From Eledone cirrhosa (Eukaryota): 64,000 nucleotides of DNA. A program made the translations under genes and the position numbers. The stretch is taken from assembly GCA_964016885.1 (NCBI GenBank), contig OZ024742.1:142910001-142974000 (forward strand). The letters are read 5' to 3'. Position 1 is the first letter of the stretch. Each line of letters begins with the position of its first letter. Below the pieces are notes generated by a model. The model saw only the letters and a program-made list of their open reading frames with translations. It made no database searches and was not told the DNA's origin. Below are positions 6,061 to 60,026 of this stretch, in pieces.

Positions 6061-7120
6061 GCCAGTTGGAATAAATAATAATAATATTTTTCAACTAAAT
6101 AAAGACTAAAAAAAAAAACACAAACCAATTGTGTTCACAAGAATATTTTAGTTTTCTGAATATAAGGACTGATGTACAGCAGCAATCTTTCAGTACTTAA
6201 AACTCTGAGTCGTCAGTTAATTTTATTAATAGATCACAATATTCTAAATGAGTACCTGTAGCAACAGCTGAGGGATAATCCTACAATGAATTGGTGTCTC
6301 ATTCAGGGAAGTGAGTATTGTACACTCAGCCATTTAACACCAACGAAACCACGATAAGTTACCGGTTGATGAGCCTCTGGACTTAGGACAGACTAACTTT
6401 TTTTAATGTTAATATGCCACATGAAGATTCCTTATGTATCCCATTTAGAATAGATACACTGTATCCCTGCCTGTCATAAGAGGCAACTAAAAGAGTTGGT
6501 GCCAGAGGGCATCTGGTTGTAGAATATTGTCTCAAAAAGGATCCCCATGATGAGTATTAAGCTTGTCATGGGGTCTGCAAGGCTAATCCCAGCTTTAGCA
6601 AGGAAGATGGCTTTTAAATGCTTATTATTATTATAATATGTCACTTGAAAAACAAATAAATAGCTGTCTATTTATATTTGCCATCACGACTGGCAAACTG
6701 CCTATGCCAAAAAAATTACAATAAATCCCTCAAAATACCATAATCATCTAATCCCCATTGTAAAAAATTGTTTAAATGCTATTATTAGTCAAAATGTTTC
6801 ATAATTCTGAGATAAATCTAATTCAACAGCAAGGGATGTAAATGATATTAAAATATATATTTATACATATATATGTATATAGTTCAATGTGAAGATCTAA
6901 ATTTTATAAAAAAAATAAATTAAAAAAAAAGACAGAAAAAGATATTTTAAGAGATGGAGGGTTAATCTCTGAAATTTAAATGGAATTTTTATTCTGGCTT
7001 GATTGTGCATAAGGAATAATAATATACACAGACATAATTTGGACAATGATTGGTCATCACAACCAAAAAAATGGTGGTGTTCAGATGTTCAACATAAACC
7101 AGACGAAAGAAACAGCAGTA

Positions 7121-13584: not shown

Positions 13585-16500
13585 CTGCAGGACATACTGT
13601 TTATTGAGAGACATAACAACTGTCACTGCAGGACATACTGTTTATTGAGAGACATAACAACTGTCACTGCAGGACATACTGTTTATTGAGAGACATAACA
13701 ACTGTCACTGCAGGACATATTGTTTATTGAGAGACATAACAACTGTCAGTGTAGGACATATTGTTTATTGAGCGACATAACAACTGTCACTGCAGGACAT
13801 ATTGTTTATTGAGAGACATAACAACTGTCACTGCAGGACATATTGTTTATTGAGAGACATAACAACTGTCACTGCAGGACATATTGTTTATTGAGAGACA
13901 TAACAATTGTCAGTGCAGGACATATTGTTTATTGAGAGACATAACAACTGTTACTGTATGACATACTGTTTATTGAGAGACATAACAACTGTTACTGTAG
14001 GACATACTGTTTATTGAGAGACATAACAACTGTCACTGCAGGACATATTGTTTATTGAGAGACATAACAACTGTCAGTGCAGGACATATTGTTTATTGAG
14101 CGACATAACAACTGTCACTGTAGGACATACTGTTTATTGAGAGACATAACAACTGTCACTGCAGGACATACTGTTTATTGAGAGACATAACAACTGTTAC
14201 TGTAGGACATATTGTTTATTGAGAGTCATAACAACTGTCACTGTAGGACATACTGTTTATTGAGAGACATAACAACTGTCACTGCAGGACATACTGTTTA
14301 TTGAGAGACATAACAACTGTCACTGCAGGACATATTGTTTATTGAGAGACATAACAACTGTCACTGTAGGACATACTGTTTATTGAGAGACATAACAACT
14401 GTCACTGCAGGACATATTGTTTATTGAGAAACATAACAACTGTCAGTGCAGGACATATTGTTTATTGAGCGACATAACAACTGTCACTGTAGGACATACT
14501 GTTTATTGAGAGACATAACAACTGTCACTGTAGGACATACTGTTTATTGAGAGACATAACAACTGTTACTGTAGGACATATTGTTTATTGAGAGACATAA
14601 CAACTGTCACTGTAGGACATACTGTTTATTGAGAGACATAACAACTGTCACTGCAGGACATATTGTTTATTGAGAAACATAACAACTGTCAGTGCAGGAC
14701 ATATTGTTTATTGAGCGACATAACAACTGTCACTGTAGGACATACTGTTTATTGAGAGACATAACAACTGTCACTGTAGGACATACTGTTTATTGAGAGA
14801 CATAACAACTGTTACTGTAGGACATACTGTTTATTGAGAGACATAACAACTGTCACTGCAGGACATTGTTTATTGAGAGACATAACAACTGTCAGTGTAG
14901 GATACATTGTTTATTGAGAGACATAACAACTGTCACTGTAGGACATACTGTTTATTGAGAGACATAACAACTGTCACTGTAGGACATACTGTTTATTGAG
15001 AGACATAACAACTGTTACTGTAGGACATACTGTTTATTGAGAGACATAACAACTGTTACTGTAAGACATATTGTTTATTGAGCGACATAACAACTGTTAC
15101 TGTAGGACATACTGTTTATTGAGAGACATAACAACTGTCAGTGCAGGACATATTGTTTATTGAGAGACATAACAACTGTCAGTGTAGGACATACTGTTTA
15201 TTGAGAGACATAACAACTGTCACTGTAGGACATACTGTTTATTGAGAGACATAACAACTGTCAGTGCAGGACATATTGTTTATTGAGAGACATAACAACT
15301 GTCACTGTAGGACATATTGTTTATTGAGAGACATAACAACTGTTACTGTAGGACATATTGTTTATTGAGCGACATAACAACTGTCACTGCAGGACATATT
15401 GTTTATTGAGAGACATAACAACTGTCACTGTAGGACATACTATTTATTGAGAGACATAACTGTCAGTGTAGGACATATTGTTTATTGAGCGACATAATAA
15501 CTGTCACTGCAGGACATACTGTTTATTGAGAGACATAACAACTGTCACTGTAGGACATACTGTTTATTGAGAGACATAACAACTGTCAGTGTAGGACATA
15601 TTGTTTATTGAGAGACATAACAACTGTCACTGTAGGACATACTGTTTATTGAGAGACATAACAACTGTCACTGTAGGACATACTGTTTATTGAGAGACAT
15701 AACAACTGTCACTGTAGGACATACTGTTTATTGAGAGACATAACAACTGTTACTGTAGGACATACTGTTTATTGAGCGACATAACAACTGTCACTGTAGG
15801 ACATACTGTTTATTGAGAGACATAACAACTGTCACTGTAGGACATATTGTTTATTGAGAGACATAACAACTGTCACTGTAGGACATACTGTTTATTGAGA
15901 GACATAACAACTGTCACTGTAGGACATACTGTTTATTGAGCGACATAACAACTGTCACTGTAGGACATACTGTTTATTGAGAGACATAACAACTGTCAGT
16001 GTAGGACATATTGTTTATTGAGCGACATAACAACTGTCACTGTAGGACATACTGTTTATTGAGAGACATAACAACTGTCACTGTAGGACATACTGTTTAT
16101 TGAGCGACATAACAACTGTCACTGTAGGACATATTGTTTATTGAGAGACATAACAACTGTCACTGTAGGACATATTGTTTATTGAGAGACATAACAACTG
16201 TCACTGTAGGACATACTGTTTATTGAGAGACATAACAACTGTCACTGTAGGACATACTGTTTATTGAGCGACATAACAACTGTCAGTGTAGGACATACTG
16301 TTTATTGAGAGACATAACAACTGTCACTGTAGGGCATACTGTTTATTGAGAGACATAACAACTGTCACTGTAGGACATATTGTTTATTGAGAGACATAAC
16401 AACTGTCAGTGTAGGACATATTGTTTATTGAGCGACATAACAACTGTCACTGCAGGACATATTGTTTATTGAGAGACATAACAACTGTCACTGCAGGACA

Positions 16501-18507
16501 TATTGTTTATTGAGAGACATAACAACTGTCACTGCAGGACATATTGTTTATTGAGAGACATAACAACTGTCACTGCAGGACATTGTTTATTGAGAGACAT
16601 AACAACTGTCAGTGTAGGATACATTGTTTATTGAGAGACATAACAACTGTCACTGTAGGACATACTGTTTATTGAGAGACATAACAACTGTCAGTGTAGG
16701 ACATACTGTTTATTGAGAGACATAACAACTGTTACTGTAGGACATACTGTTTATTGAGAGACATAACAACTGTTACTGTAAGACATATTGTTTATTGAGC
16801 GACATAACAACTGTTACTGTAGGACATACTGTTTATTGAGAGACATAACAACTGTCACTGTAGGACATACTGTTTATTGAGAGACATAACAACTGTCACT
16901 GTAGGACATACTGTTTATTGAGAGACATAACAACTGTCAGTGCAGGACATATTGTTTATTGAGAGACATAACAACTGTCACTGTAGGACATATTGTTTAT
17001 TGAGAGACATAACAACTGTTACTGTAGGACATATTGTTTATTGAGCAACATAACAACTGTCACTGCAGGACATATTGTTTATTGAGAGACATAACAACTG
17101 TCACTGTAGGACATACTGTTTATTGAGAGACATAACAACTGTCAGTGTAGGACATATTGTTTATTGAGCGACATAATAACTGTCACTGCAGGACATACTG
17201 TTTATTGAGAGACATAACAACTGTCACTGTAGGACATACTGTTTATTGAGAGACATAACAACTGTCAGTGTAGGACATATTGTTTATTGAGAGACATAAC
17301 AACTGTCACTGTAGGACATACTGTTTATTGAGAGACATAACAACTGTCACTGTAGGACATACTGTTTATTGAGAGACATAACAACTGTCAGTGTAGGACA
17401 TATTGTTTATTGAGCGACATAACAACTGTCACTGTAGGACATACTGTTTATTGAGAGACATAACAACTGTCACTGTAGGACATACTGTTTATTGAGCGAC
17501 ATAACAACTGTCACTGTAGGACATACTGTTTATTGAGCGACATAACAACTGTCACTGCAGGACATATTGTTTATTGAGAGACATAACAACTGTCACTGTA
17601 GGACATACTGTTTATTGAGAGACATAACAACTGTCACTGTAGGACATACTGTTTATTGAGAGACATAACAACTGTCACTGTAGGACATACTGTTTATTGA
17701 GAGACATAACAACTGTCACTGTAGGACATACTGTTTATTGAGAGACATAACAACTGTCAGTGTAGGACATACTGTTTATTGAGAGACATAACAACTGTCA
17801 CTGTAGGACATACTGTTTATTGAGAGACATAACAACTGTCACTGTAGGACATACTGTTTATTGAGGCGACATAACAACTGTCACTGTAGGACATACTGTT
17901 TATTGAGAGACATAACAACTGTCACTGTAGGACATATTGTTTATTGAGAGACATAACAACTGTCACTGTAGGACATATTGTTTATTGAGAGACATAAACA
18001 TAACAACTGTCACTGTAGGACTACTGGTTTATGAGAGACATAACAACTGTCACTGTAGGACATACTGTTTATTGAGCGACATAACAACTGTCAGTGTAGG
18101 ACATACTGTTTATTGAGAGACATAACAACTGTCACTGTAGGGCATACTGTTTATTGAGAGACATAACAACTGTCACTGTAGGACATATTGTTTATTGAGA
18201 GACATAACAACTGTCACTGCAGGACATATTGTTTATTGAGAGACATAACAACTGTCACTGCAGGATATATTGTTTATTGAGAGACATAACAACTGTCACT
18301 GCAGGACATACTGTTTATTGAGAGACATAACAACTGTCACTGTAGGAACATATTGTTTATTGAGAGACATAACAACTGTCACTGTAGGACATATTGTTTA
18401 TAGAGAGACATAACAACTGTCCTGTAGGACATACTGTTTATTGAGAGACATAACAACTGTCACTGTAGGACATATTGTTTATTGAGAGACATAACAACCG
18501 TCACTGC
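13585..18507. repeat. 41-bp minisatellite array, about 120 units, in RCHY1 intron 6
   Basis: Unit GACATA(C/T)TGTTTATTGAG(A/C)GACATAACAACTGT(C/T)A(C/G)TG(C/T)AG, head-to-tail with no spacers. Confidence 0.98.
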
Positions 18508-21532: not shown

Positions 21533-21537
<5 letters not shown>

Positions 21538-21648
21538 AACGAGTAGGACCCCGACGGCTGAGCTCAAGCCGTTTCGACGGCTAATTCTGTCCAGAATTAG
21601 CCGTCGAAATGGCTTGAGCTCAGCCGTCGGGGTCCTACTCGTTCCTAT
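21533..21648. repeat. Near-perfect GC-rich 116-nt palindrome between (TA)n tracts
   Basis: 57-bp arms around TC at 21590-21591; one G-T mismatch (21571/21610). Confidence 0.95.
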
Positions 21649-21789
21649 TACCCACTCTACTACCCTAAGTATTGAGTACTTTGATGCGTTATGGTCCACC
21701 TGGTTCCTTACCACATTTCCTTCGTTATATATATATATATATATATATAGTAAAAAATTATATATATATATGTATATATATATAGTAAG

Positions 21790-21851
<62 letters not shown>

Positions 21852-21972
21852 AAGTTATATTTAAATTGTTGGGTTACAACTAGTAAATATTTATAACTGA
21901 TATAAAAGCACTCGACAAATATTTGGAGTATATTTACAATATTAAATAAATGGAAACTATATTTATAAAACC

Positions 21973-22049
21973 ATATTTATTTCATTATATATATTTCAGG
22001 GATATCATATTAACAATATGCTATGCCTTCCTCAGACAAAATACAATAT
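21973..22049 (-). ncRNA. Type I hammerhead ribozyme motif (PLE-associated)
   Basis: Exact reverse complement of 25005-25081. Confidence 0.8.
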
Positions 22050-23400
22050 AAACAGTTTTATAGATAAATAGATTCGACATACCGTAACATCTACTTGCAT
22101 TCGAGAAGGTTGATTTGGTAGTGACAAAATTGTACACAAAGAGAAAGAAAGAGAGAGAGAAAGAGAGAAAAAGAGAGAAAAAAGAAAGAAAGACAGAAAA
22201 CGAAGAAAAAGAAAAAGAAGAAATGCATGGAACAAAATAGAGAGATGGAAAGATAGATAAAGAGAAGAACTTCATGTAAAGAAACAGAAAGAGATATATA
22301 TATATATAGAGAGAGGAAATAGAGATAGATAGATATATATAGAAAGCTAGGTAGTGGGACGACTGTTGAATAACGTATCAATGATACATTTATTTATTTA
22401 TTTATTTATTTAGCTCTAGTATTAATGTAAGGGAGATATATGGAGGGAAAACCAGCTGTTATATAGGGAGAGAAAAAATATAGAGAGAGAAAAAAATTCA
22501 AAAATATCCAGACACAGGCGAGGCGTAAAAAACCTCTGTTTTAATATAGAGGTATTAGTATTTACAAAACCAGCCTCTACATTGTAAATATCAGTATTCC
22601 TGAATGAGATATGTATCCACAATGTGTGAAAATTAATGATCTTATGTTTAGTTTTTAAAAAAAATTCATATGTTTATGTGATAATTACAAACATCTATGT
22701 GAATGTACATGATCAATTCTGCAAACCATAAGTTCACGGAAAGTATTCTCAATGTGGTATAAAAATTTAAGTATACATATATGTGTATATAGAGTCAATA
22801 TTACTATTTCAGTCTATCAAGCAAAGATAGAGCAGATTTCAATATACTAATAAAAATAAAAATAAAAATATATCGGAAACAAAACTAAAAATAACAATAA
22901 TAATAATAAGTAATAATAAAATAGAAAACTAAGAAATATTACGAAAGAATATTACATATTAAAAATATTACATATTAAAAAATTTACATATTAAGAATAT
23001 TAAAAATAAAAATAAAAATTAGGAAATACTACAATAATAAAAATAAAATAAACCACAAAGATCAACCCTTCAAAATTAATTGACAATATATTGCCAAGTT
23101 CATTATAAACATCAGAGTCGAAAAACAGATAAAGCCAAAAATTATCTATCAAATCGCATCTAGTAAAGATCATTTCAAAAAGTATAGGATGCCCAATTTG
23201 GTCTACATGTGTTCTTATATTTAATATAGAAGTTTATCTAGTGTAACGTTTATTCGAAATATTTGGAGCATCAACTTTTAGGATAGCTTAATTTTTCATG
23301 AAGAATGTTTAAATAAATAAAATAAAAATAAAAAGAATAAAAAGGGAATCAAAGATTTATCGGCTAGTTTCCCATATAATTATAAATCAAACTAAATATA

Positions 23401-23973
23401 CTACATTTTAAATTTAAATTTATATTTAAACGTTGAGTTTAATCTATGTTTGCAACAACTGAATAAATTTGTCCGTAGATTAAGGGAATTTTTAGATTTT
23501 AGTATAAAGAATATCTCCTCTGCGCAGAGGTCACATGTCTCAGAGGATGAATTAAAAGGAATCCCTCTTGAGACTATATTCCAAGCCGTCGAATATCTAA
23601 CGTTATCTAGCTTAAGTTGCCATAGTACGCCTGATAGTGCCGTTGAAGATTTTTTACTTGGATCTGTGAAAGAATTCTTGTGGTTATTATAGCGAAGTTT
23701 AAATTCCGTCGATGTGGAACCGACGTAGTTAAAAGAATTAGAGTCAGTATTAACATTACAATTGTATACTATATTTTTAACTAAGCAGTTGTTATTTAAC
23801 GGACATTTAGATCTATCTCTACAGTTACATTTGTTAACTTGTATATTATTTATGCTGTTATCACTAGGTTTTAAGTTCCTATTATTTATTCTATTGATAT
23901 TTTGTGCTAAATTTTTGGTGGATGAGTAGGTTAATTTAATTGTATGTCTATTGAAAATTGAGTGATATCTATG
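23401..23973 (-). pseudogene. PLE GIY-YIG endonuclease domain, 5'-truncated open frame of 190 codons plus stop, no start codon
   Basis: Manual translation HRYHSIFNRHTIKLTYSSTKNL...CNCRDRSKCPLNNNCLVKNIVYNCNV...YVGSTSTEFKLRYNNHKNSF...STALSGVLWQLK...W...CDLCAEEIFFI...LNLRTNLFSCCKH...*. IVY/YVG is the GIY-YIG signature, with the conserved R, E and N residues. Confidence 0.9.
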
Positions 23974-25004
23974 TTAATTTTTGAAGGGTTGATCTTTGTG
24001 GTTTATTTTATTTTTATTATTGTAGTATTTCCTAATTTTTATTTTTAATATTCTTAATATGTAAATTTTTTAATATGTAATATTTTTAATATGTAATATT
24101 CTTTCGTAATATTTCTTAGTTTTCTATTTTATTATTACTTATTATTATTATTGTTATTTTTAGTTTTGTTTCCGATATATTTTTATTTTTATTTTTATTA
24201 GTATATTGAAATCTGCTCTATCTTTGCTTGATAGACTGAAATAGTAATATTGACTCTATATACACATATATGTATACTTAAATTTTTATACCACATTGAG
24301 AATACTTTCCGTGAACTTAAGGTTTGCAGAATTGATCATGTACATTCACATAGATGTTTGTAATTATCACATAAACATATGAATTTTTTAAAAAACTAAA
24401 CATAAGATCATTAATTTTCACACATTGTGGATACATATCTCATTCAGGAATACTGATATTTACAATGTAGAGGCTGGTTTTGTAAATACTAATACCTCTA
24501 TATTAAAACAGAGGTTTTTTACGCCTCGCCTGTGTCTGGATATTTTTTTTCTCTCTCTTTTTTCTCTCTCTATATTTTTTCTCTCCCTATATAACAGCTG
24601 GTTTTCCCTCCATATATCTCCCTTACATTAATACTAGAGCTAAATAAATAAATAAATAAATAAATGTATCATTGATACGTTATTCAACAGTCGTCCCACT
24701 ACCTAGCTTTCTATATATATCTATCTATCTCTATTTCCTCTCTCTCTATATATATATATCTCTTTCTGTTTCTTTACATGAAGTTCTTCTCTTTATCTAT
24801 CTTTCCATCTCTCTATTTTGTTCCATGCATTTCTTCTTTTTCTTTTTCTTCGTTTTCTGTCTTTCTTTCCTTTTTTCTCTCTTTTTCTCTCTTTCTCTCT
24901 CTCTTTCTTTCTTTTTGTGTACAATTTTGTCACTACCAAATCAACCTTCTCAAATGCAAGTAGATGTTACGGTATGTCGAATCTATTTATCTATAAAACT
25001 GTTT

Positions 25005-25081
25005 ATATTGTATTTTGTCTGAGGAAGGCATAGCATATTGTTAATATGATATCCCTGAAATATATATAATGAAATAAATAT
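25005..25081 (+). ncRNA. Type I hammerhead ribozyme motif (PLE-associated)
   Basis: Stem I 5' ATATT-G-TATTTTGT; core CTGAGGA (25019-25025); stem II AGG-c-ATA-g-CATATT[GTT]AATATG-a-TAT-c-CCT; GAA then palindromic ATATATAT; cleavage-site A at 25068; stem I 3' ATGAAATA-AATAT. Confidence 0.8.
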
Positions 25082-25113
25082 GGTTTTATAAATATAGTTT
25101 CCATTTATTTAAT

Positions 25114-25162
<49 letters not shown>

Positions 25163-25178
25163 TATATATATATATATA

Positions 25179-26719
25179 TCAATGACCGAACTAGAGAAGA
25201 AATTCCAAACATGGAAGCACGGCCTAGAATCAAAAGGCCTTAAAATTAACCTGGCTAAGACTAAAGTTCTAGTTTGTAGGAAAGAAAATAAGGCGCCGGT
25301 CCCTTCCGGGAAATGGCCATGCTCAGTGTGTAGGAAAGGCGTAGGTAGAAACTCCATTTTATGTCCCAAATGCAAAGTATGGGTGCATAAAAGATGTAGT
25401 GGGATCACAGGTAAGCTAACTAAGAACATAGATTTTACATGTGGCCAGTGCTCTGGTGCAATAAGTAGCAGCAAGTGCCCACAAAATACTAGCTCTTTCA
25501 ATTGCGCAGAGGGTGCTATAGAAATAGTGGACAGCTGGGTGACAAAATCAGCAGTGGGGGGTGGGGGGTGGGTGTGCTCTGAAAGTACAGTAGCTAGAGT
25601 CAGAACTGGATGGAAAAAGTTCAGAGAGCTTATACCACTATTAGCCGCTAGAGGGTTCTCCCTAAAAATGAAAGGCAGGTTATACGATGCCTGCATACGA
25701 ACAGCAATGCTGCATGGCAGTGAGACCTGGGCATTATGTGCAGAGGATATACGCAGACTAGAGAGGAACGAAGCTTGCATGCTCCGCTGGATGTATAATA
25801 GTAATATACGTGAACGGCTAAGCATAAATGAACTAAGGAAAAAATTAGAAATAAAAGGGATCAGATGTTGTTTACTCGAGAGAAGGCTACGTTGGTACGG
25901 TCACGTGATGCGCATGAAAGACGACAGCTGTATAACAAAGTGCAGGGCAATAAAGATAGACGGTAGCCACGGAGTAGGCAGACCCAGAAAAACCTGGGAC
26001 GACATGATAAATTCCGACCTCACACGCTTACACCTCTCCAAGACAATGTCACTGGACCGAGACCTTTGGTGGTACTCAGTAATAGAGAAGACCCGCCTTA
26101 CCTAAATACAAAGTAAAACCTACTACAGTCAGTAGGCATCTCTATCAAAACACACCCCCGTCCCACCACCCCCACCTCATCCACACCGCCCCTTTCAATG
26201 TAAAGTTATGTTGGTGCCACAACATCCAGGCCGAAACAAATGAGATCGTGTAGGTGTCACGACAAAAAAAAAACACAGTCCACGCTGTAAATGTGGCCGT
26301 GTAGGCAACACGGTAAAAACCTCCCAGCCCCACACTGTAAATGTGGTTGGTGTTAGGAAGGGCATCCAGCTGTAGAAAACCCGCCAGACAGTCCACGCTG
26401 TAATGTGGCCATGTAGGCAACACAGTAAAAACCTCCCAGCCCCACACTGTAAATGTGGTTGGTGTTAGGAAGGGCATCCAGCTGTAGAAAACCCGCCAGA
26501 CAGTCCACGCTGTAATGTGGCCATGTAGGCAACACGGTAAAAACCTCCCAGCCCCACACTGTAAATGTGGTTGGTGTTAGGAAGGGCATCCAGCTGTAGA
26601 AAACCCGCCAGACGGTCCTATGCGAGCAAGACAACCACTCTTGCCTCAAGTGGGAAAACCCCCGTCCAAACCCATGCAAGCGTGGAACACGGACGCTAAA
26701 CCTTGATGATGATGATGAT
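25179..26719 (+). mobile_element. RTE-clade LINE, 5'-truncated young copy (ORF 25182-26105, 3' UTR, (GAT)n tail)
   Basis: Protein almost identical to the C-terminal part of ORF 36773-38092; three 112-bp UTR repeats; begins directly at a (TA)n tract. Confidence 0.95.
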
Positions 26720-36772: not shown

Positions 36773-39166
36773 TTAGGTAAGGCGGGTCTTCTCTATTACT
36801 GAGTACCGCCAAAGGTCTCTGTCCAGTGACATTGTCTTGGAGAGGTGTAAGTGTGTGAGGTCGGAATTTATCAGCTCGTCCCAGGTTTTTCTGGGTCTGC
36901 CTACTCCGTGGCTACCATCTATCTTTATTGCCCTGCACTTTGTTATACAGCTGTCGTCTTTCATGCGTATCACGTGACCATACCAACGTAGCCTTCTCTC
37001 GAGTAAACAACATCTGATCCCTCTTATTTCTAATTTTTTCCTTAGTTCGTTTATGCTTTGCCGTTCACGTATATTACTATTACACATCCAGCGGAGCATG
37101 CAAGCTTCGTTCCTCTCTAGTCTGCGTATATCCTCTGCACACAATGCCCAGGTCTCACTGCCATGCAACATTGCTGTTCGTATGCAGGCATCATACAACC
37201 TGCCTTTCATTTTTAGGGAGAACCCTTTAGCGGCTAATAGTGGTATAAGCTCTCTGAACTTTTTCCATCCAGTTCTGACTCTAGCTACTGTACTTTCAGA
37301 GCACCCTCCCCCACTGCTGATTTTGTCACCCAGGTAACGGAAGCTGTCCACTATTTCTATCGAACCCTCTGCGCAATTGAAAGAGCTAGTATTTTGTGGG
37401 CACTTGCTGCTACTTATTGCACCAGAGCACCGGCCACATGTAAAATCTGTGTTCTTAGTTAGCTTACCTGTGATCCCACTACATCTTTTATGCACCCATA
37501 CTTTGCATTTGGGACATAAAATGGAGTTTCTACCTACGCCTTTCCTACACACTGAGCATGGCCATTTCCCGGTAGGGACCGCCGCCTTATTTTCTTTCCT
37601 ACAAACTAGAACTTTAGTCTTAGCCAGGTTAATTTTAAGGCCTTTTGATTCTAGGCCGTGCTTCCATGTTTGGAATTTCTTCTCTAGCTCGGCCATTGAT
37701 TCAGCTATCAGCGTTAGATCATCTGCGTATAGGAGTTCCCATGGGCAGCCGGTCTTGAACTCCTCTGTTATAGCCTGAAGGGCAATAATAAATAGTAGGG
37801 GGCTAAGAACAGAGCCCTGATGGACACCAACTTTTACGCTAAACTCTTCACTATATTCGTTGTTAATTCTAACCTTGCTGACTGTTTCTTTATACATGGC
37901 TTGTATAGCTCTCACAAGCCATTCGTCAACACCTAGTTTTCTAAGAGCCCACCAGATAATGAAACGGGGGACTCTGTCGAAGGCTTTCTCCAAGTCGACA
38001 AAAGCTAAGTATAGGGGTTTACTTTTAGCTAGGTACTTTTCCTGTAGTTGTCGTACAATGAAAAGAGCGTCTGTGGTACTTTTACCTGACACAAACCCGA
38101 ACTACATTTCATCTAGATCAATTCTCTCTCTGATTAGTTGCGCTATTACTTTTTCCGTGACCTTCATGACCTGGTCGATTAATTTAATGCCTCTATAGTT
38201 ACTCCTATCTAGGGCGTCTCCTTTACCCTTGTAACAGTTAACGATGATGCTGCTACGCCAGTCCTTCGGAACAACCCCATTCTGTATGACTTGGTTTACT
38301 ATCCGGGTGACCATGGTGTGTCGCACCGTTCCAGAGGCTTTCAGCATCTCAGCAACTATTTCCAAAGGCCCAGCCGCCTTACCCGTCTTCATATCTTTGA
38401 TTGCCTTACTTATTATACTACCTTCGACTAACACTGCTGGTCCCTCTATTGGGTCGATGTGGGGGAGACTGTCTTTCTCCCATTTATTTTCCTCATTTAG
38501 TAGCCTTTCGTAGTAACACTTCCAAGCTACCTTCTTATCAGTGTCAGTGATGGCAAGTACGCCATCATCGTTAAGTACACACTTCTCCCCGACAATATCA
38601 CGGTTTTCCTTGACACATTGCCTAGCAATCCTGAACACCTCACGTTGTAGAACATGCTTGAACTTTCTTTCCTCTGCTTCCCTTCTTGCGAAGTACACTT
38701 GTCTCCTAGCTTCCCTCCTGGCCACTTGATAGTCTTCTCTACTTCCCCCATCTCGCCATGCTTTCCAAGCCTGCTTTTTGGCCTTGATTGACCCCTCCAC
38801 CTTACTGTTCCACCACCATGTTACTCTCCTCCTGCCTACAGGCCTGCTCCAGCCACAGACTTCGTCTGCCGCCATCAGCAGGTTTGCTTTCAGGAATTCC
38901 CACTGTTCCTCTACCTTGTACGACTCTAATTGCTCTTCCTTACTGTCGAAAGCATCAAGTAATATGCTTTGAAATTTATTTCTGGCTGTGGGATCCTTTA
39001 GCTTCCATATTTTTCTCCTGAGGATAGTCCTCTTCTGCTGTCTAGTACGTCTCGTCCTGACTATGAGGTCGCTAATTATCAGTCTATGTTGGGAGGTGCA
39101 TTCTTCATGGGGGAGGGATTTAGTGTTTACAACAGACACTCTGTTACGTCTTCTGGTAAGGATATA
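36773..39166 (-). pseudogene. RTE reverse transcriptase ORF with one in-frame nonsense codon
   Basis: ORFs 38102-39139 and 36773-38092 are in the same frame, separated by DEM*FGFV (TAG at 38102-38104) where the paralogue at 43076-43624 reads DEMQFGF. Confidence 0.93.
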
Positions 39167-39692
39167 TATATATAGAAAGAGAGAGTTTGTGATGTCAACA
39201 CTTCCGGTGGCGATCGCTTAAATAAACATACTCATTTTCTCCTAATGCAGTTTATATATAATATCGTCTTTTTTTAATGTATCATGGATTACGTTACTGA
39301 TTACATAACAGTGTAACGCAGTCTTCGTTCAATTTCTGTGTATATTGTCAATTAGTCAATTACAATTTTATTTGATGTATCATATCTACATGTATATATA
39401 TACCTGAGTATATCAATATACACACTACACATGCTAGCAGAAAACCACCCGAAGGGTGGTTTTTCTGCTAGTATTTAAAATTATATAAGTTGATAAAACA
39501 ACAGTAACGCGTTCAGATATTTATTTAAAGCTCAAATGTGGTTTATTATATATCCAGAATAATGCGAGATATTTCAGAGGTGAATCCAGTTGATATACTT
39601 CCAGTCATCCCAGATTGAAATCACAGAGCATATATTAAAAAAAAAATAGCTGTTGAACTTGGTGACTCATTTCTTTGTTTTATATATATATA

Positions 39693-49760: not shown

Positions 49761-50305
49761 CTCCTCCTGGGTACACAAGAGGTGTGGGATCTCAGGAAGT
49801 CTAGCTAAAATGTTTTTCACATTGAACCGCCGCATCGAGGCAGTAAGCAGCAAACGACCACAGGAAACAAGCACTATCAAATTCCCGGAAGGTTCAGTAG
49901 GCAGCTTCTGTTACCTGAGTGACCAAATTAGCAGTGAAGGTGGGTGTTCTGAAAGTACTGTAGCCAGACTAAGAATGAAATGGAAGAAGTTCAGAGAGCT
50001 ACTATCGCTGTTAGCTACAAAAGACTTTTCCCTCAAAATGAAAGGCAGACTATAATGTGTGCATACGAACAGCAATGTTGCACGATAGTGAGACCTGGGT
50101 GCTGTGTGCATAAGACTTGCGTAGATTGGAAAGAAATTAAGCCTGCATACTCTGGTGGATGTGTGATAGTAATATACGTGAACGACAAAGCATAAACAAA
50201 CTGAGAGAGACACTAGGCATAAGAGGAATCAGATGCAGTGTGCAAGAGAGAGTGTGTTGGTATGGACATGTGATGCATATAAAAAGGTGCTGAGTGTTCA
50301 AAGTC
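49761..50305 (+). mobile_element. RTE fragment (family of 35942-39166)
   Basis: WVHKRCGISG...FCYLSDQISSEGGCSESTVARLR...WYGHVM. Confidence 0.8.
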
Positions 50306-52078
50306 AAGTCGAGTCCTCTCGTGCATGTACCGAGGTCCTCCCGTGAAGGTAGAAGGCAGGATGCAGACCTTGCCAATGTTTCGGGGATCCCCGTCGTTGG
50401 TCAAGCCGTCTCGCAGGTGTATGTAGCTTTCGCTACGCAGTTGCTGCTGGTGGGTTCGAATGAAGGCCAGTCGTTCTAACTCCATCTTTGCTGCCATATC
50501 CACCGCAAATTGGTTCAGTAGGTCCTGCGATCTGTGCAAACTGTTGAAACAGTTTCTCCGAGGCATGAGTCGGTATGCGTAAAATTCCTTGCAGGACGCG
50601 GTTTTGGCGGCAGCAACGGAGGGCTGGTTTGGCTGGCAGTGTGGAGTCTTGAAGTGGTAGCCGTCCTCGCCGCGGGGGAAAAGTAGAGGGTATTGGAGGC
50701 TGTCGTAGGAGCGGTGTGTTTCGCGTATTCTGTGGAGGCCAGTTGCACGGTTGGATATGACGATATCCCGGGGGTTGCGCTGGTCTCCGTGAAGGACGAC
50801 TGCCACCTCGTTGCACGCGGGCGCGTTGAATCGACGGGCGTGTTCTCCGGATGGTCTTTTGTCGGCATCGATGACAATGTTGAAGTTAGGCAGGTCAGTA
50901 GTCTCCAAGGCGTACTTGAAGCTCTGCACGTAGCTGTTTTCGGAGTGTAGCATTTGCTGCAGCGCAAGGAGGACGTCTCTGTCCAGGTTCTCTCTAGTGC
51001 CATCAGCTGGGATGACAGATGAGTGCATGTCAGCCTGCTTGTTGTAGTCAGCTATGAAGTAAATTTGCAGGAAGGCGGGTTGTGCTGCCGGCTCAGGCTG
51101 TAGAGGACCGACATAGTGGTAAACCTGGCCCTGAACCTTAAAGGTTGGCATCCACCCGCTTTCTCGTACAATTTTGGCCCTGAACGAAGTCATCTGGAAA
51201 GCGCAGTTGTATTTCCTTATGTTGCCAAGGAAGTCTGTTGACGTAGAGGTCTCTCCACTAAGAAGTTCTCGCAAAGGTTCTGGAGGGGCCGCCAAAGGAG
51301 GAAGTGAAACCTTCCCATTAGAGCAACACAGGCCAGGTGTTTCTCCGGGCCACTTCTCTGCACCACAGAATTGGCATATGACATCCATCCTGCCTAGTTG
51401 AATGTCCGTACGGTCGGAGTATTTTACTGTTGGATCGTAGTTGAAAGCCTTCATAAGCCCAAATGACTCATGTGGACTCATTGTTCCTCTGGCGGTGTCT
51501 CTTCGTGCGTTGTTTGTGTCCAACCGAGCACGGCGAGCTGTTTGATGTTCTGCGGCACGGGAGGCGGCAGTGGATACAGCGTTCTGGGACCTTCGGATGG
51601 CTGTCTGTATCTCGGTCTGGGATGCTCTGGCAGCTGCGGTGGAGGCGGAGTCCTTGGACCTTCAGATGGCTGTCTCCTGGTCGGTTTCTGCGGCACGGGA
51701 GGCGGCGGTTGAAGCAGCGTTCTTTGACCGTCTGGTGGCTGTTTGCTGTTTAGTTTCGGAGGCCCTTGCAGCAGCAGTAGTTGCAGCATTCCTAGCCCTA
51801 CGAAGAGCTCTTTGGCTGTCACTCTCTGCTGCCCTAGAGGCGGCTGTTGCAACTGCATTCCGACAATTACGAATGGCACGATTCGAAGCAGTAACCGTAG
51901 ATAGAGAGGTGCTGGGTTGGGCTGTGCTAGGAGTACTTAAGTTTGAAAGTGAAGTAACAGGGGTTTGTGGCCAAAAATGCAGTCCGGCATCCGTAGACTG
52001 CTCATTCAATCGCCTCTTTTTTGAAACAACAGACGATGTTTTCCTACGGTTAAGGGTACTCTTTCTTTTCAGTGGCAT
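50306..52078 (-). pseudogene. Helitron RepHel N-terminal region (repeats, zinc-binding motif, helitron_like_N), one premature stop, truncated before the HUH and helicase domains
   Basis: ORFs 51662-52078 and 50213-51523 are in one frame. CQFCGAEKWPGETPGLCCSNGKV, FLGNIRKYNCAFQMTSF, FKVQGQVYH, YDSLQYPLLFPRGEDG and ILPSTFTGGPRYM are typical RepHel motifs. Confidence 0.92.
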
Positions 52079-57145: not shown

Positions 57146-57537
57146 TACTATATATATAATAGAAATTGAAGCTTTCGCCATATTTTTGACTAAAGAAACT
57201 TTAGCCTGATAGTGGGGTTTAGAACCCTCTAAGAAATGGAAAAAGATGAGTATTGACATACATGGGAGTTGTACCACATCTTTGGTTATCCAGACCACTG
57301 TGCTACCATTACACCAACACATCACACATCTTTTTGGTAGCACAGAGGTCTAGATAACCAAAGATATGGGTTCAACTCCCATGTACGTCAATACTCATCT
57401 TTTTCCATTTCTTAGAGGGTTCTAAACTCCACTATCAGGCTAAAGTTTCTTTAGTCAAAAATACAGCAAAAGCTTCTATTTCTATTTTAAAACTCACTCG
57501 CTGTTTTAAAAACATACTTACTTGTCATATATATATG

Positions 57538-57720: not shown

Positions 57721-57807
<87 letters not shown>

Positions 57808-57930
57808 AAAGTTATATTTAAAATTGTTGGGTTACAACTAGTAAATATTTATAACTGATATAAAAGCACTCGACAAATATTTGGAGTATATTTACAATAT
57901 TAAATAAATGGAAACTATATTTATAAAACC

Positions 57931-58007
57931 ATATTTATTTCATTATATATATTTCAGGGATATCATATTAACAATATGCTATGCCTTCCTCAGACAAAAT
58001 ACAATAT
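57931..58007 (-). ncRNA. Type I hammerhead ribozyme motif
   Basis: Identical to 21973-22049. Confidence 0.8.
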
Positions 58008-59715
58008 AAACAGTTTTATAGATAAATAGATTCGACATACCGTAACAACATCGACTTGCATTTGAAGAGGTTGATTTGGCAGTGAAAAAATTGTACACAG
58101 AGAGAAAGAAAGAGAGAAAAAAGAAAGAAAGACAGAAAACGAAGAAAAGGAAGAAAAAGAAGAAATGCATGGAACAAAATAGAGAGATGGAAAGATAGAT
58201 AAAGAGAAGAACTTCATGTAAAGAAACAGAAAGAGATATATATATATAGAGAGAGAGGAAATAGAGATAGATACATATATATATAGAAAATTAGGTAGTG
58301 GGAGGTCTGTTGAGTAAATGTATCAATGATACATTTATTTATTTATTTATTTATTTAGCTCTAGTATTAATGTAAGGGAGATATATATAGAGAGAAAAAA
58401 AATATAGAGAGAGAAAAAAATATAGCGAGAGAAGAAAAAATTTAAAAATAACCAGATATATGCGAGGCGTAAAAACCCTATGTTTTAATGTAGAGGTATT
58501 AGTATTTATAAAACATCCACTATATTGTAAATATCAGTATTCCTGAATGAGACAAGTATCCATAGTGTGTGAAAATTAATGATCTTATGTTTAGTTTTTT
58601 AAAAAATTCATATGTTTATGTGATAGCTACAAACATCCATGTGAATCTACATGATCAACTCTGCAAACCCTAAGTTCACGGAAAACATTCTCAATGTGGT
58701 ATAAAAATTTGAGTATACATATATGTGTATTATTATTCCTGTCTTTACTCTACAAGATTATCTATCAAGCAGAAATAGAGAGCAGATTTCAATATACTAA
58801 TAAAAATATATATCAGAAACAAAACTAAAAAAATAACAATAATAATAATAGTTAGTTTTCTATTTTATTATTACTTATTATTATTATTGTTATTTTTTTA
58901 GTTTTGTTTCTGATATATATTTTTATTAGTATATTGAAATCTGCTCTCTATTTCTGCTTGATAGATAATCTTGTAGAGTAAAGACAGGAATAATAATACA
59001 CATATATGTATACTCAAATTTTTATACCACATTGAGAATGTTTTCTGTGAACTTAGGGTTTGCAGAGTTGATCATGTAGATTCACATGGATGTTTGTAGC
59101 TATCACATAAACATATGAATTTTTTAAAAAACTAAACATAAGATCATTAATTTTCACACACTATGGATACTTGTCTCATTCAGGAATACTGATATTTACA
59201 ATATAGTGGATGTTTTATAAATACTAATACCTCTACATTAAAACATAGGGTTTTTACGCCTCGCATATATCTGGTTATTTTTAAATTTTTTCTCTCGCTA
59301 TATTTTTTCTCTCTCTATATTTTTTTCTCTCTCTATATATATCTCCCTTACATTAATACTAGAGCTAAATAAATAAATAAATAAATAAATGTATCATTGA
59401 TACATTTACTCAACAGACCTCCCACTACCTAATTTTCTATATATATATGTATCTATCTCTATTTCCTCTCTCTCTATATATATATATATCTTTCTGTTTC
59501 TTTACATGAAGTTCTTCTCTTTATCTATCTTTCCATCTCTCTATTTTGTTCCATGCATTTCTTCTTTTTCTTCCTTTTCTTCGTTTTCTGTCTTTCTTTC
59601 TTTTTTCTCTCTTTCTTTCTCTCTGTGTACAATTTTTTCACTGCCAAATCAACCTCTTCAAATGCAAGTCGATGTTGTTACGGTATGTCGAATCTATTTA
59701 TCTATAAAACTGTTT

Positions 59716-59792
59716 ATATTGTATTTTGTCTGAGGAAGGCATAGCATATTGTTAATATGATATCCCTGAAATATATATAATGAAATAAATAT
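59716..59792 (+). ncRNA. Type I hammerhead ribozyme motif
   Basis: Identical to 25005-25081. Confidence 0.8.
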
Positions 59793-59824
59793 GGTTTTAT
59801 AAATATAGTTTCCATTTATTTAAT

Positions 59825-59871
<47 letters not shown>

Positions 59872-59913
59872 ATAATGATAAATTTGAAGACTAAACTTTA
59901 ATCTGTTATTTTA

Positions 59914-59949
<36 letters not shown>

Positions 59950-59994
59950 TAAAATAACAGATTAAAGTTTAGTCTTCAAATTTATCATTATTAC

Positions 59995-60026
<32 letters not shown>

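Follow-up and report, generated by a model that had tools for sequence, protein, structure and literature searches.

A conserved type I hammerhead motif in the terminal repeat of a Hydra-clade Penelope-like element (PLE) of Eledone cirrhosa, and copy ends lying just upstream of a duplicated hairpin

In a stretch of 64,000 nucleotides of Eledone cirrhosa DNA (the window), one 77-nt hammerhead motif occurs four times. Its helix III is an (AT)4 palindrome, made of the same TA repeat into which the host elements insert. This raises the question whether the cleaved RNA end chooses the insertion target and, if it does not, what sets the ends of the copies.

The hammerhead motif and its host elements

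The four copies of the motif lie in two elements, A and B, each consisting of two arms in inverted orientation. The features of the two elements are as follows.

21849–25119, both strands: element A, a 5′-truncated Hydra-clade PLE on the minus strand joined at about 23974 to an inverted plus-strand arm
23401–23973, minus strand: C-terminal 190 aa of the element A ORF, with CxCX5C linker, GIY-YIG-type endonuclease, CxxC and CxH
21849–21934, minus strand: tail of element A, from the short to the long end site
57806–59830, both strands: element B, a near-perfect palindrome of two 3′ UTR/pLTR arms centred at about 58846
57806–57892, minus strand: tail of element B
25005–25081, plus strand: type I hammerhead motif in the short-ended arm of element A (core 25019–25025, stem II 25026–25056, GAAA 25057–25060, helix III 25060–25067, predicted cut after 25068)
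21973–22049, minus strand: identical hammerhead in the long-ended arm of element A
57931–58007, minus strand: identical hammerhead in the long-ended arm of element B
59716–59792, plus strand: identical hammerhead in the short-ended arm of element B
24989–25093, plus strand: predicted distal extension of helix I (24989–24999 pairs with 25083–25093; 11 bp in most subfamilies)

Element A has its long end at about 21849 and its short end at about 25117–25119, both in (TA)n; the long and short ends of element B are at about 57806 and 59828–59830, respectively. The hammerhead is located in the pLTR of a very abundant Hydra-clade PLE, and one 25-nt anchor downstream of the cut gave 47,138 matches in the 3.0-Gb genome. 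The genomic copies include an intact 737-aa ORF and a tandem unit that is 3,868 nt long, in which the order is 3′ UTR, hammerhead, hairpin 1, hairpin 2 and ATG. The ORF of locus L118 has DKT at residue 118, the CxCX5C linker at residue 596 and, at its C-terminus, a GIY-YIG-type endonuclease (EN) with CxxC and CxH. At the RWK position it has RWR (residue 37), as has Hydra-1_Crog, and the CX2-5CxxC finger (CCHH motif) was judged by eye to be absent from it. The element ORF had no domain match in Pfam, and its best named homologues were from Argonauta (38%). Compared by motif and by eye, the family matches the Hydra clade as characterised in the available text of Craig et al. (2021, PMC8557442) in DKT, CxCX5C, CxxC, CxH, the hammerhead and the (TA)n flanks. 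The length given there is generally under 3 kb, a tendency of the clade and not a diagnostic feature, and the unit found here is longer because of its long 3′ UTR. A non-LTR retrozyme was considered and rejected, as the tandem units are 3.87 kb long and coding and the short copies are inverted, not tandem.

The 77-mer has exactly four exact occurrences in the window (25005 and 59716 on the plus strand, 21973 and 57931 on the minus strand), as a sequence-only reading of this DNA had claimed. The parts it had named were also present: the CUGAGGA core, GAAA, the (AT)4 helix III with a predicted cut after 25068, a stem I of 13 pairs (two G.U, one bulge) and a stem II of 12 pairs. That reading further held that the arms of the two elements differ outside the motif. 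The two elements indeed diverge: a comparison over about 1,050 nt gives 64–68 mismatches, and gaps open at 16 places. But identity is not confined to the 77 nt: the block shared by all four arms is 155 nt long (24965–25119) and thus extends beyond the ribozyme. Arm-to-arm identity within one element is 97.8% and 99.2%, and since both arms of an element come from one insertion, the four sites count as two observations. At 6–7% divergence, 77 identical nucleotides would be expected by chance with p of about 0.005–0.008. A 29-nt part of the motif was matched exactly at 6,188 genomic sites, so that identity among the four arms alone is weak evidence.

An Rfam search for hammerheads gave no match at gathering level in the window, nor at E ≤ 10 on a tandem copy, and this proposed check of the motif therefore came out negative. 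Three weak Rfam matches on the tandem copy were dismissed as chance. None of nine related Hydra loci received a hammerhead score either, including the seven with a pattern-detected hammerhead, which shows that the Rfam models miss this class; nor did Rfam return a match to the hairpin motif described below. Folding of the 77-mer alone was no better than that of shuffles (z 0.54). Judged on its primary sequence and pairing, the 77-nt motif is a type I hammerhead ribozyme sequence and an ordinary member of the known PLE class.

The window holds several other features. A 482-aa ORF with a Helitron N-terminal domain lies at 50213–51661 (minus strand). LINE-type RT ORFs with a PHD finger are found at 36773–39217 (minus strand) and 25180–26105 (plus strand), the latter fragment beginning directly after the TA tract of element A. 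A 41-bp satellite array of 120 copies covers 13585–18506, and a weak tRNA match of 30.9 bits at 57254–57323 (minus strand) is possibly a tRNA-derived SINE head. A short palindromic insertion with a TA centre (59868–59995) adjoins element B; sequence related to it is also found beside copies at L018 and L076, and the insertion is probably the end of a third TA-targeting element.

Variation and predicted folding of the hammerhead across the family

We recorded variation in 100 anchored copies, the first ones on contig 1. CUGANGA was present in 87 of these, C3 was changed in 2, and the core was absent in 11, mostly through truncation or deletion. The core was variable at N7 only (U 55, A 15, G 11, C 6). 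The alignment comprised 62 of the 100 copies plus the window copy (63 sequences); truncated, deleted, some core-damaged and redundant partner arms were excluded. Among these related and selected copies, a variant shared by at least three copies occurred in none of the 12 invariant core columns, compared to 37 of the 65 other columns. Of all cells, 87% retained pairing, compared with 83% in shuffles and 40–52% in slid controls, and 97 cells showed double changes against 50 in shuffles. Two of five whole-structure measures, the number of double-change pairs and the number of pair types, were no better than shuffles. Stem II covaried, with G-C/A-U swaps, G.U intermediates and double changes at 7 of the 13 helix II pairs. 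In helix I the changes were mostly single-sided (G.U/A-U), and the conservation of its distal extension is partly by construction because its 3′ strand is the search anchor. Both the core conservation and the stem covariation expected from the sequence-only reading were thus seen across copies. Its claim that the motif is under selection is supported by this family-wide variation, and not by the four-way identity. Contigs from sequencing runs carried variants at N7 and in helix III as well.

When the G10.1-C11.1 closing pair was sought, the first pair of stem II proved to be A-U (unpaired in 9 of 62 copies), followed by G-C or A-U; this first A-U may be an extra nucleotide pair as in PLE hammerheads. 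Helix III has a single variable position, A to G, and according to our computations this change is tolerated in the dimer as tandem U.G. The computed cost of helix III in the monomer is 2.9 kcal/mol, and the 8-bp duplex has −3.2 (AUAUAUAU) and −2.2 (AUAUGUAU) kcal/mol. A short, self-complementary helix III that is unstable in the monomer is characteristic of the dimer-cleaving PLE hammerheads, and the assignment of the motif to PLE hammerheads with a self-complementary helix III was borne out.

Neither single-sequence folding nor RNAalifold of the short alignment returned the hammerhead fold. Both gave an inactive register instead, with GAAA and helix III as the pairing partners of the helix I 5′ strand. 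For 51 of 63 sequences the predicted monomer favours this register over the active one, and the active fold of the window copy is predicted to lie about 5.5 kcal/mol away. Within 25005–25081 the 7-mer UGAAAUA is present at the core and again in the 3′ strand of helix I, an arrangement conserved family-wide. Because of this repetition, the 5′ strand of helix I can pair in the inactive register, which would form first during transcription and is possibly a built-in off state or else a by-product of A/U content. The folding predictions and helix III fit a weak, dimer- or protein-dependent cleavage, as published for other PLEs in the available text of PMC4209133 and PMC11167929.

Ends of genomic copies and the duplicated hairpin

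The sequence-only reading had suggested a possible link between the cleaved RNA end and target choice; in such a link, cleavage would leave a (UA)4 3′ end, which would anneal to nicked (TA)n and in this way choose the target. Some copies end as this predicts: at 22 sites the cut is followed directly by (TA)n, and those with a visible partner are the short-type arm. However, these are 0.35% when set against the 6,188 sites reading through the cut, and a neighbouring, non-cleaved TA microhomology has 21 such ends. At least 7,014 sites end at the regular short site, counted with a pattern spanning more subfamilies than the cut-site counts. Sites that begin at the cut after a TA run numbered 32, against 15 at a control site of shorter homology, and 2 of the 30 cut-start sites viewed were helix III expansions; this excess fits the longer microhomology at the cut. 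That cDNAs pass through the cut site is clear from 30 of the 547 near-full-length units: 22 continue across it, 8 end before reaching it, and no unit begins there. There was also no 5′-truncation hotspot at the cut among 100 copies, by a method that overestimates lengths in TA-rich flanks.

Helix III itself was no better indicator of the copy ends. It is interrupted, AUAUGUAU, at 17,531 sister sites, and 35 sampled AUAUGUAU copies have the same two end sites and are TA-flanked. In the AUAUGUAU subfamilies, a pattern for cut-site ends that covers only part of them gave 13 matches against 2 in the reversed control, with 6 of 10 viewed belonging to the family, and we take this count as supportive only. 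According to the available part of the supplement of PMC8557442, (TA)n insertion is found in 26 of 27 Hydra families and an (AT)4 helix III in none of the 25 listed hammerheads. None of 28 hammerhead groups of related loci had an all-A/U helix III, and one had a TATATA centre. The window also holds a second family that inserts in TA, and its helix III is GC-rich. In other TA-inserting Hydra families helix III is unrelated to (AT)4. A choice of target by the cut end, or a marking of copy ends by a TA-repeat helix III, is not supported by these genomic copies; as the main route the proposed link is refuted by the end counts, and we give it hardly any credence.

The ends were found at two other sites. 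Past the cut, 58 of the 100 anchored copies ended at about 50 nt (short), 38 at about 140 nt (long) and 4 elsewhere. A hairpin motif lies next to each of these sites, and copies of it in the window, with the insertion that holds the third, are:

21907–21929, minus strand: hairpin motif copy 1 of element A (ACUC...GAGU-GCU), starting 5–6 nt after the short end site
57865–57887, minus strand: hairpin motif copy 1 of element B
21654–21680, plus strand: hairpin motif copy 1 of a second family, with 30,907 exact genomic matches
21536–21727, both strands: mini-palindromic insertion of this second, likely Hydra-clade family, in the same TA tract as element A

At tandem junctions one hairpin copy follows each end site by a few bases, and the spacing is 90–92 nt. 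Copies 1 and 2 were alike in all 8 tandem junctions, beating at least 986 of 1,000 shuffles. For end mapping, a motif had to lie within 30 nt. Of the 233 TA runs that follow a hammerhead, 99 were placed on the template and 134 were unmappable. Among the 99 mapped ends, 96 lay at −2 to −8 from a hairpin; copy 1 accounted for 61 of the 99 and copy 2 for 38. A G is retained at −7 of the long site and an A is lost at −5 of the short site, which suggests a start near −6 or −7. The copies thus have two fixed end sites, each a few nucleotides upstream of one hairpin copy.

We also searched for the hairpin in related families, using 95 loci from public contig collections, with 44 ORF clusters that had enough upstream DNA. 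Two hairpins preceded the ORF in 26 clusters (spacing 55–83 nt), one in 10 and none in 8, where the 18 clusters with at most one hairpin by the strict pattern include truncated, variant or false ORF starts. As controls, the reverse strand had one hairpin in 3 of 44 clusters, and windows in the ORF interior had one in 2 of 284 and two in 0 of 284. The 58 distinct instances from 30 loci share the form RCUC, inner stem, 2-nt U-starting bulge (UH), GAGY and RCU, with a spacer of 8–26 nt that covaries as a stem. The first inner pair was kept in 58 of 58 (41 C-G, 17 U-A; shuffles 46), and the second and third in 41 and 39 of 58 (shuffles 25 and 22); the outer 4 bp barely vary and are part of the search pattern. 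In these other families 13 of 32 TA-run ends had a matching template (19 were unmappable), and all 13 lay within 10 nt of a hairpin, 9 of them at −3 to −6. By eye, the hairpin is present in 4 of 6 published Hydra consensus sequences, twice in Hydra-1_Ajap and Hydra-1_Crog and as a degenerate copy in Hydra-1_Obim. The duplication is therefore visible in the consensus sequences of PMC8557442, without mention in the available text of that article.

Copy 2 of the hairpin starts about 34–70 nt before the ORF in the related families, and positions −8 to −3 before the hairpin are almost all A/T. This would fit hairpins that serve transcription or translation of the downstream ORF, with nearby ends merely reflecting a TA-rich neighbourhood. 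Against this, longer TA stretches nearby, helix III included, have ends at the background rate, set against the at least 7,014 at the short site, and we consider this explanation very improbable.

The second family behaves in a similar way. What the insertion at 21536–21727 carries of the hammerhead is the 3′ half, in which helix III is GC-rich; the short end of the insertion lies on the left and the long end on the right. The ORF fragments of the family are 36–53% identical to the first family, and its target is also (TA)n. In the hammerhead of this family position 8 is an A; of 8 full copies, 4 combine it with U3 and 4 with C3. The stem II region spans about 55 nt, and helix III is long and GC-rich. 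Different ends were seen at L328, L369, L379 and L381, where hammerhead-bearing repeats without the hairpin end in a common TGTGCAA motif before (TA)n; L379 and L381 have a very short palindromic helix III. These four loci probably represent another PLE clade with its own end signal. L369–L385 are Hydra-type animal retroelements in contigs of bacterial genome bins and are apparently host DNA that ended up in these bins.

Inverted insertions, a proposed priming reaction and known systems

Among 41 distinct inverted insertions, 38 joined a long to a short end, 2 were long+long and 1 was short+short; element A of the window, itself long+short, was left out as a duplicate. In both long+long cases one arm reads into a further tandem unit. 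Against this one-of-each rule, locus L369 has two short ends facing outward. In the second family, 24 of 27 inverted insertions were long+short, and the other 3 had one unclassified end. The longer arm is not always of the same kind: it was the short-ended one in 12 of 20 asymmetric insertions, which means that each arm has sequence absent from the other.

We propose that the family carries a conserved type I hammerhead in its terminal repeat and that the two hairpin copies, just downstream of the fixed ends, likely position two RT starts on uncleaved RNA, a reading that we hold to be reasonably probable. A pair of proteins bound at the two hairpins would nick both (TA)n strands, and each nick would prime on the A/U-rich stretch immediately 5′ of one hairpin. 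The template RNA would be uncleaved or re-ligated and give two cDNAs, one per target strand. These would truncate independently and then be joined head to head, and the tail would correspond to the spacing between the hairpins. Two cDNAs from two hairpins are proposed because nearly all inverted insertions are long+short and, in 12 of 20 asymmetric ones, each arm has sequence of its own. The hammerhead would set neither the target nor the ends; it probably cuts at a low rate, either in dimeric form or aided by protein, and may process or circularise tandem transcripts. Standing against the two-start reading, the available text of PMC11167929 reports no strand difference and non-homologous initiation, whereas a one-of-each rule and TA microhomology are needed here.

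Genomic ends cannot separate an RT start from later endonuclease trimming. The endonuclease could read the hairpins in DNA or cDNA and trim a longer intermediate at two TA-rich sites, in which case the ends would be cut sites. As far as the available texts go, tails were attributed to EN-mediated resolution in PMC8557442 (a published guess), and PMC11167929 describes that the element's own junction is cleaved and refers to EN recognition in D. virilis that depends on the tail. In addition, 3 of 30 near-full-length units begin on their 5′ side at the long site (L263, L278, L280). More generally, some such units at L263, L278, L280 and L284 (about 1400–1500) begin at or near the long or the short end site, as if the cDNA stopped, or the element cut, at another start site. 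However, an 8–26 nt spacer that covaries as a stem fits a single-strand fold, not a duplex site, and the tail ends of Poseidon coincide with measured RT starts in the available text of PMC11167929. Trimming alone also leaves unexplained that each arm has sequence missing from the other. We regard it as unlikely.

Alternatively, one cDNA or an antisense template could fold back and prime itself, with the hairpins fixing the starts and one start used per event. Self-priming was proposed for inverted PLE structures in the available text of PMC3846280. It would account for the 17 of 38 long+short insertions that are near-perfect palindromes without spacer, and for private variants common to partner arms. 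In 12 of 20 asymmetric insertions, however, the short arm has extra 5′ sequence and the long arm has the tail, so that neither copies the other, and self-priming is in our opinion distinctly improbable. Thousands of palindromic insertions of 97–100% identity are found genome-wide. If such insertions were transcribed, long double-stranded RNA would result, on which small-RNA silencing or A-to-I editing would be likely to act.

A wider form of the two-start reading concerns the whole clade. The duplicated hairpin would be a template-positioning element for a telomerase-related RT, and two enzyme copies would prime both strands at once, giving the tail and the head-to-head repeats; helix III may also hold two RNAs together. 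We consider the chances for and against this wider form to be evenly balanced.

As seen in the available sources, published work already covers the presence of hammerheads in Hydra PLEs, their (TA)n targeting, their inverted copies and their tails on one side. For the duplicated hairpin and its link to both ends we found no description in the text of the openly accessible literature searched or in Rfam. The available text of PMC8557442 names the start of PLE reverse transcription and the origin of tails and inverted repeats as open questions, and the in vitro work of PMC11167929 has given a partial answer. The main value of our data lies in the duplicated hairpin and in the one-long-one-short rule, with which it becomes directly testable how PLE tails and inverted repeats arise. 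With about 25 nt, present twice at a set distance from both ends and conserved from octopus-like to coral and echinoderm families, the hairpin offers a precise mutational handle; if our reading is true, it would act in cis as a start signal in the RT class that is closest to telomerase. The two families together contribute tens of thousands of hammerhead-bearing, often palindromic insertions to the genome.

Compared with the Hydra clade as described in the available text of PMC8557442, for example Hydra-1_Obim, the family is alike in its single RT-EN ORF with DKT, CxCX5C linker, CxxC and CxH, in the hammerhead near the 3′ end, in (TA)n insertion, and in the inverted 5′-truncated copy and one-sided tail. 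It differs in its unit of 3.87 kb with a 1.5-kb 3′ UTR, in RWR for RWK and in its tail of about 90 nt, where PLE tails in general are given as 30–40 bp; its hammerhead is unlike that of Hydra-1_Obim, and its helix III is all-A/U. With the PLE hammerheads of Cervera and De la Pena (2014, PMC4209133), as far as available, and of Lunse et al. (as cited in PMC6765202), it shares the type I topology, palindromic helix III, enlarged helix II, a weak monomer fold and variable families per genome. Here, helix III is an 8-nt A/U palindrome that tolerates one A-to-G change (tandem U.G in the dimer), a C.C mismatch is conserved in stem II after the first 3 bp, and helix I is predicted to extend a further 11 bp.

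For the Poseidon element PAc of Anolis in vitro (Frangieh et al. 2024, PMC11167929), the available text describes that both strands are nicked and extended, that two internal starts flank the tail, and that the hammerhead is dispensable and uncleaved RNA is used. PAc is of a different clade, starts inside the ORF in an AC-rich stem loop without target homology, and has neither a reported duplicated element nor strand asymmetry in that text. It is similar to the family studied here in its two fixed ends parted by a tail, downstream of the hammerhead, in its need for RNA 3′ of the start sites, and in the uncleaved template proposed for this family.

The proposed reaction can also be set beside LINE-1 twin priming, from which it would differ in that its two cDNAs cover one and the same terminal region, starting from two fixed sites that are marked by hairpins. 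In LINE-1 twin priming, two target nicks prime two cDNAs, which copy non-overlapping parts from a variable internal site and give rise to a 5′ inversion.
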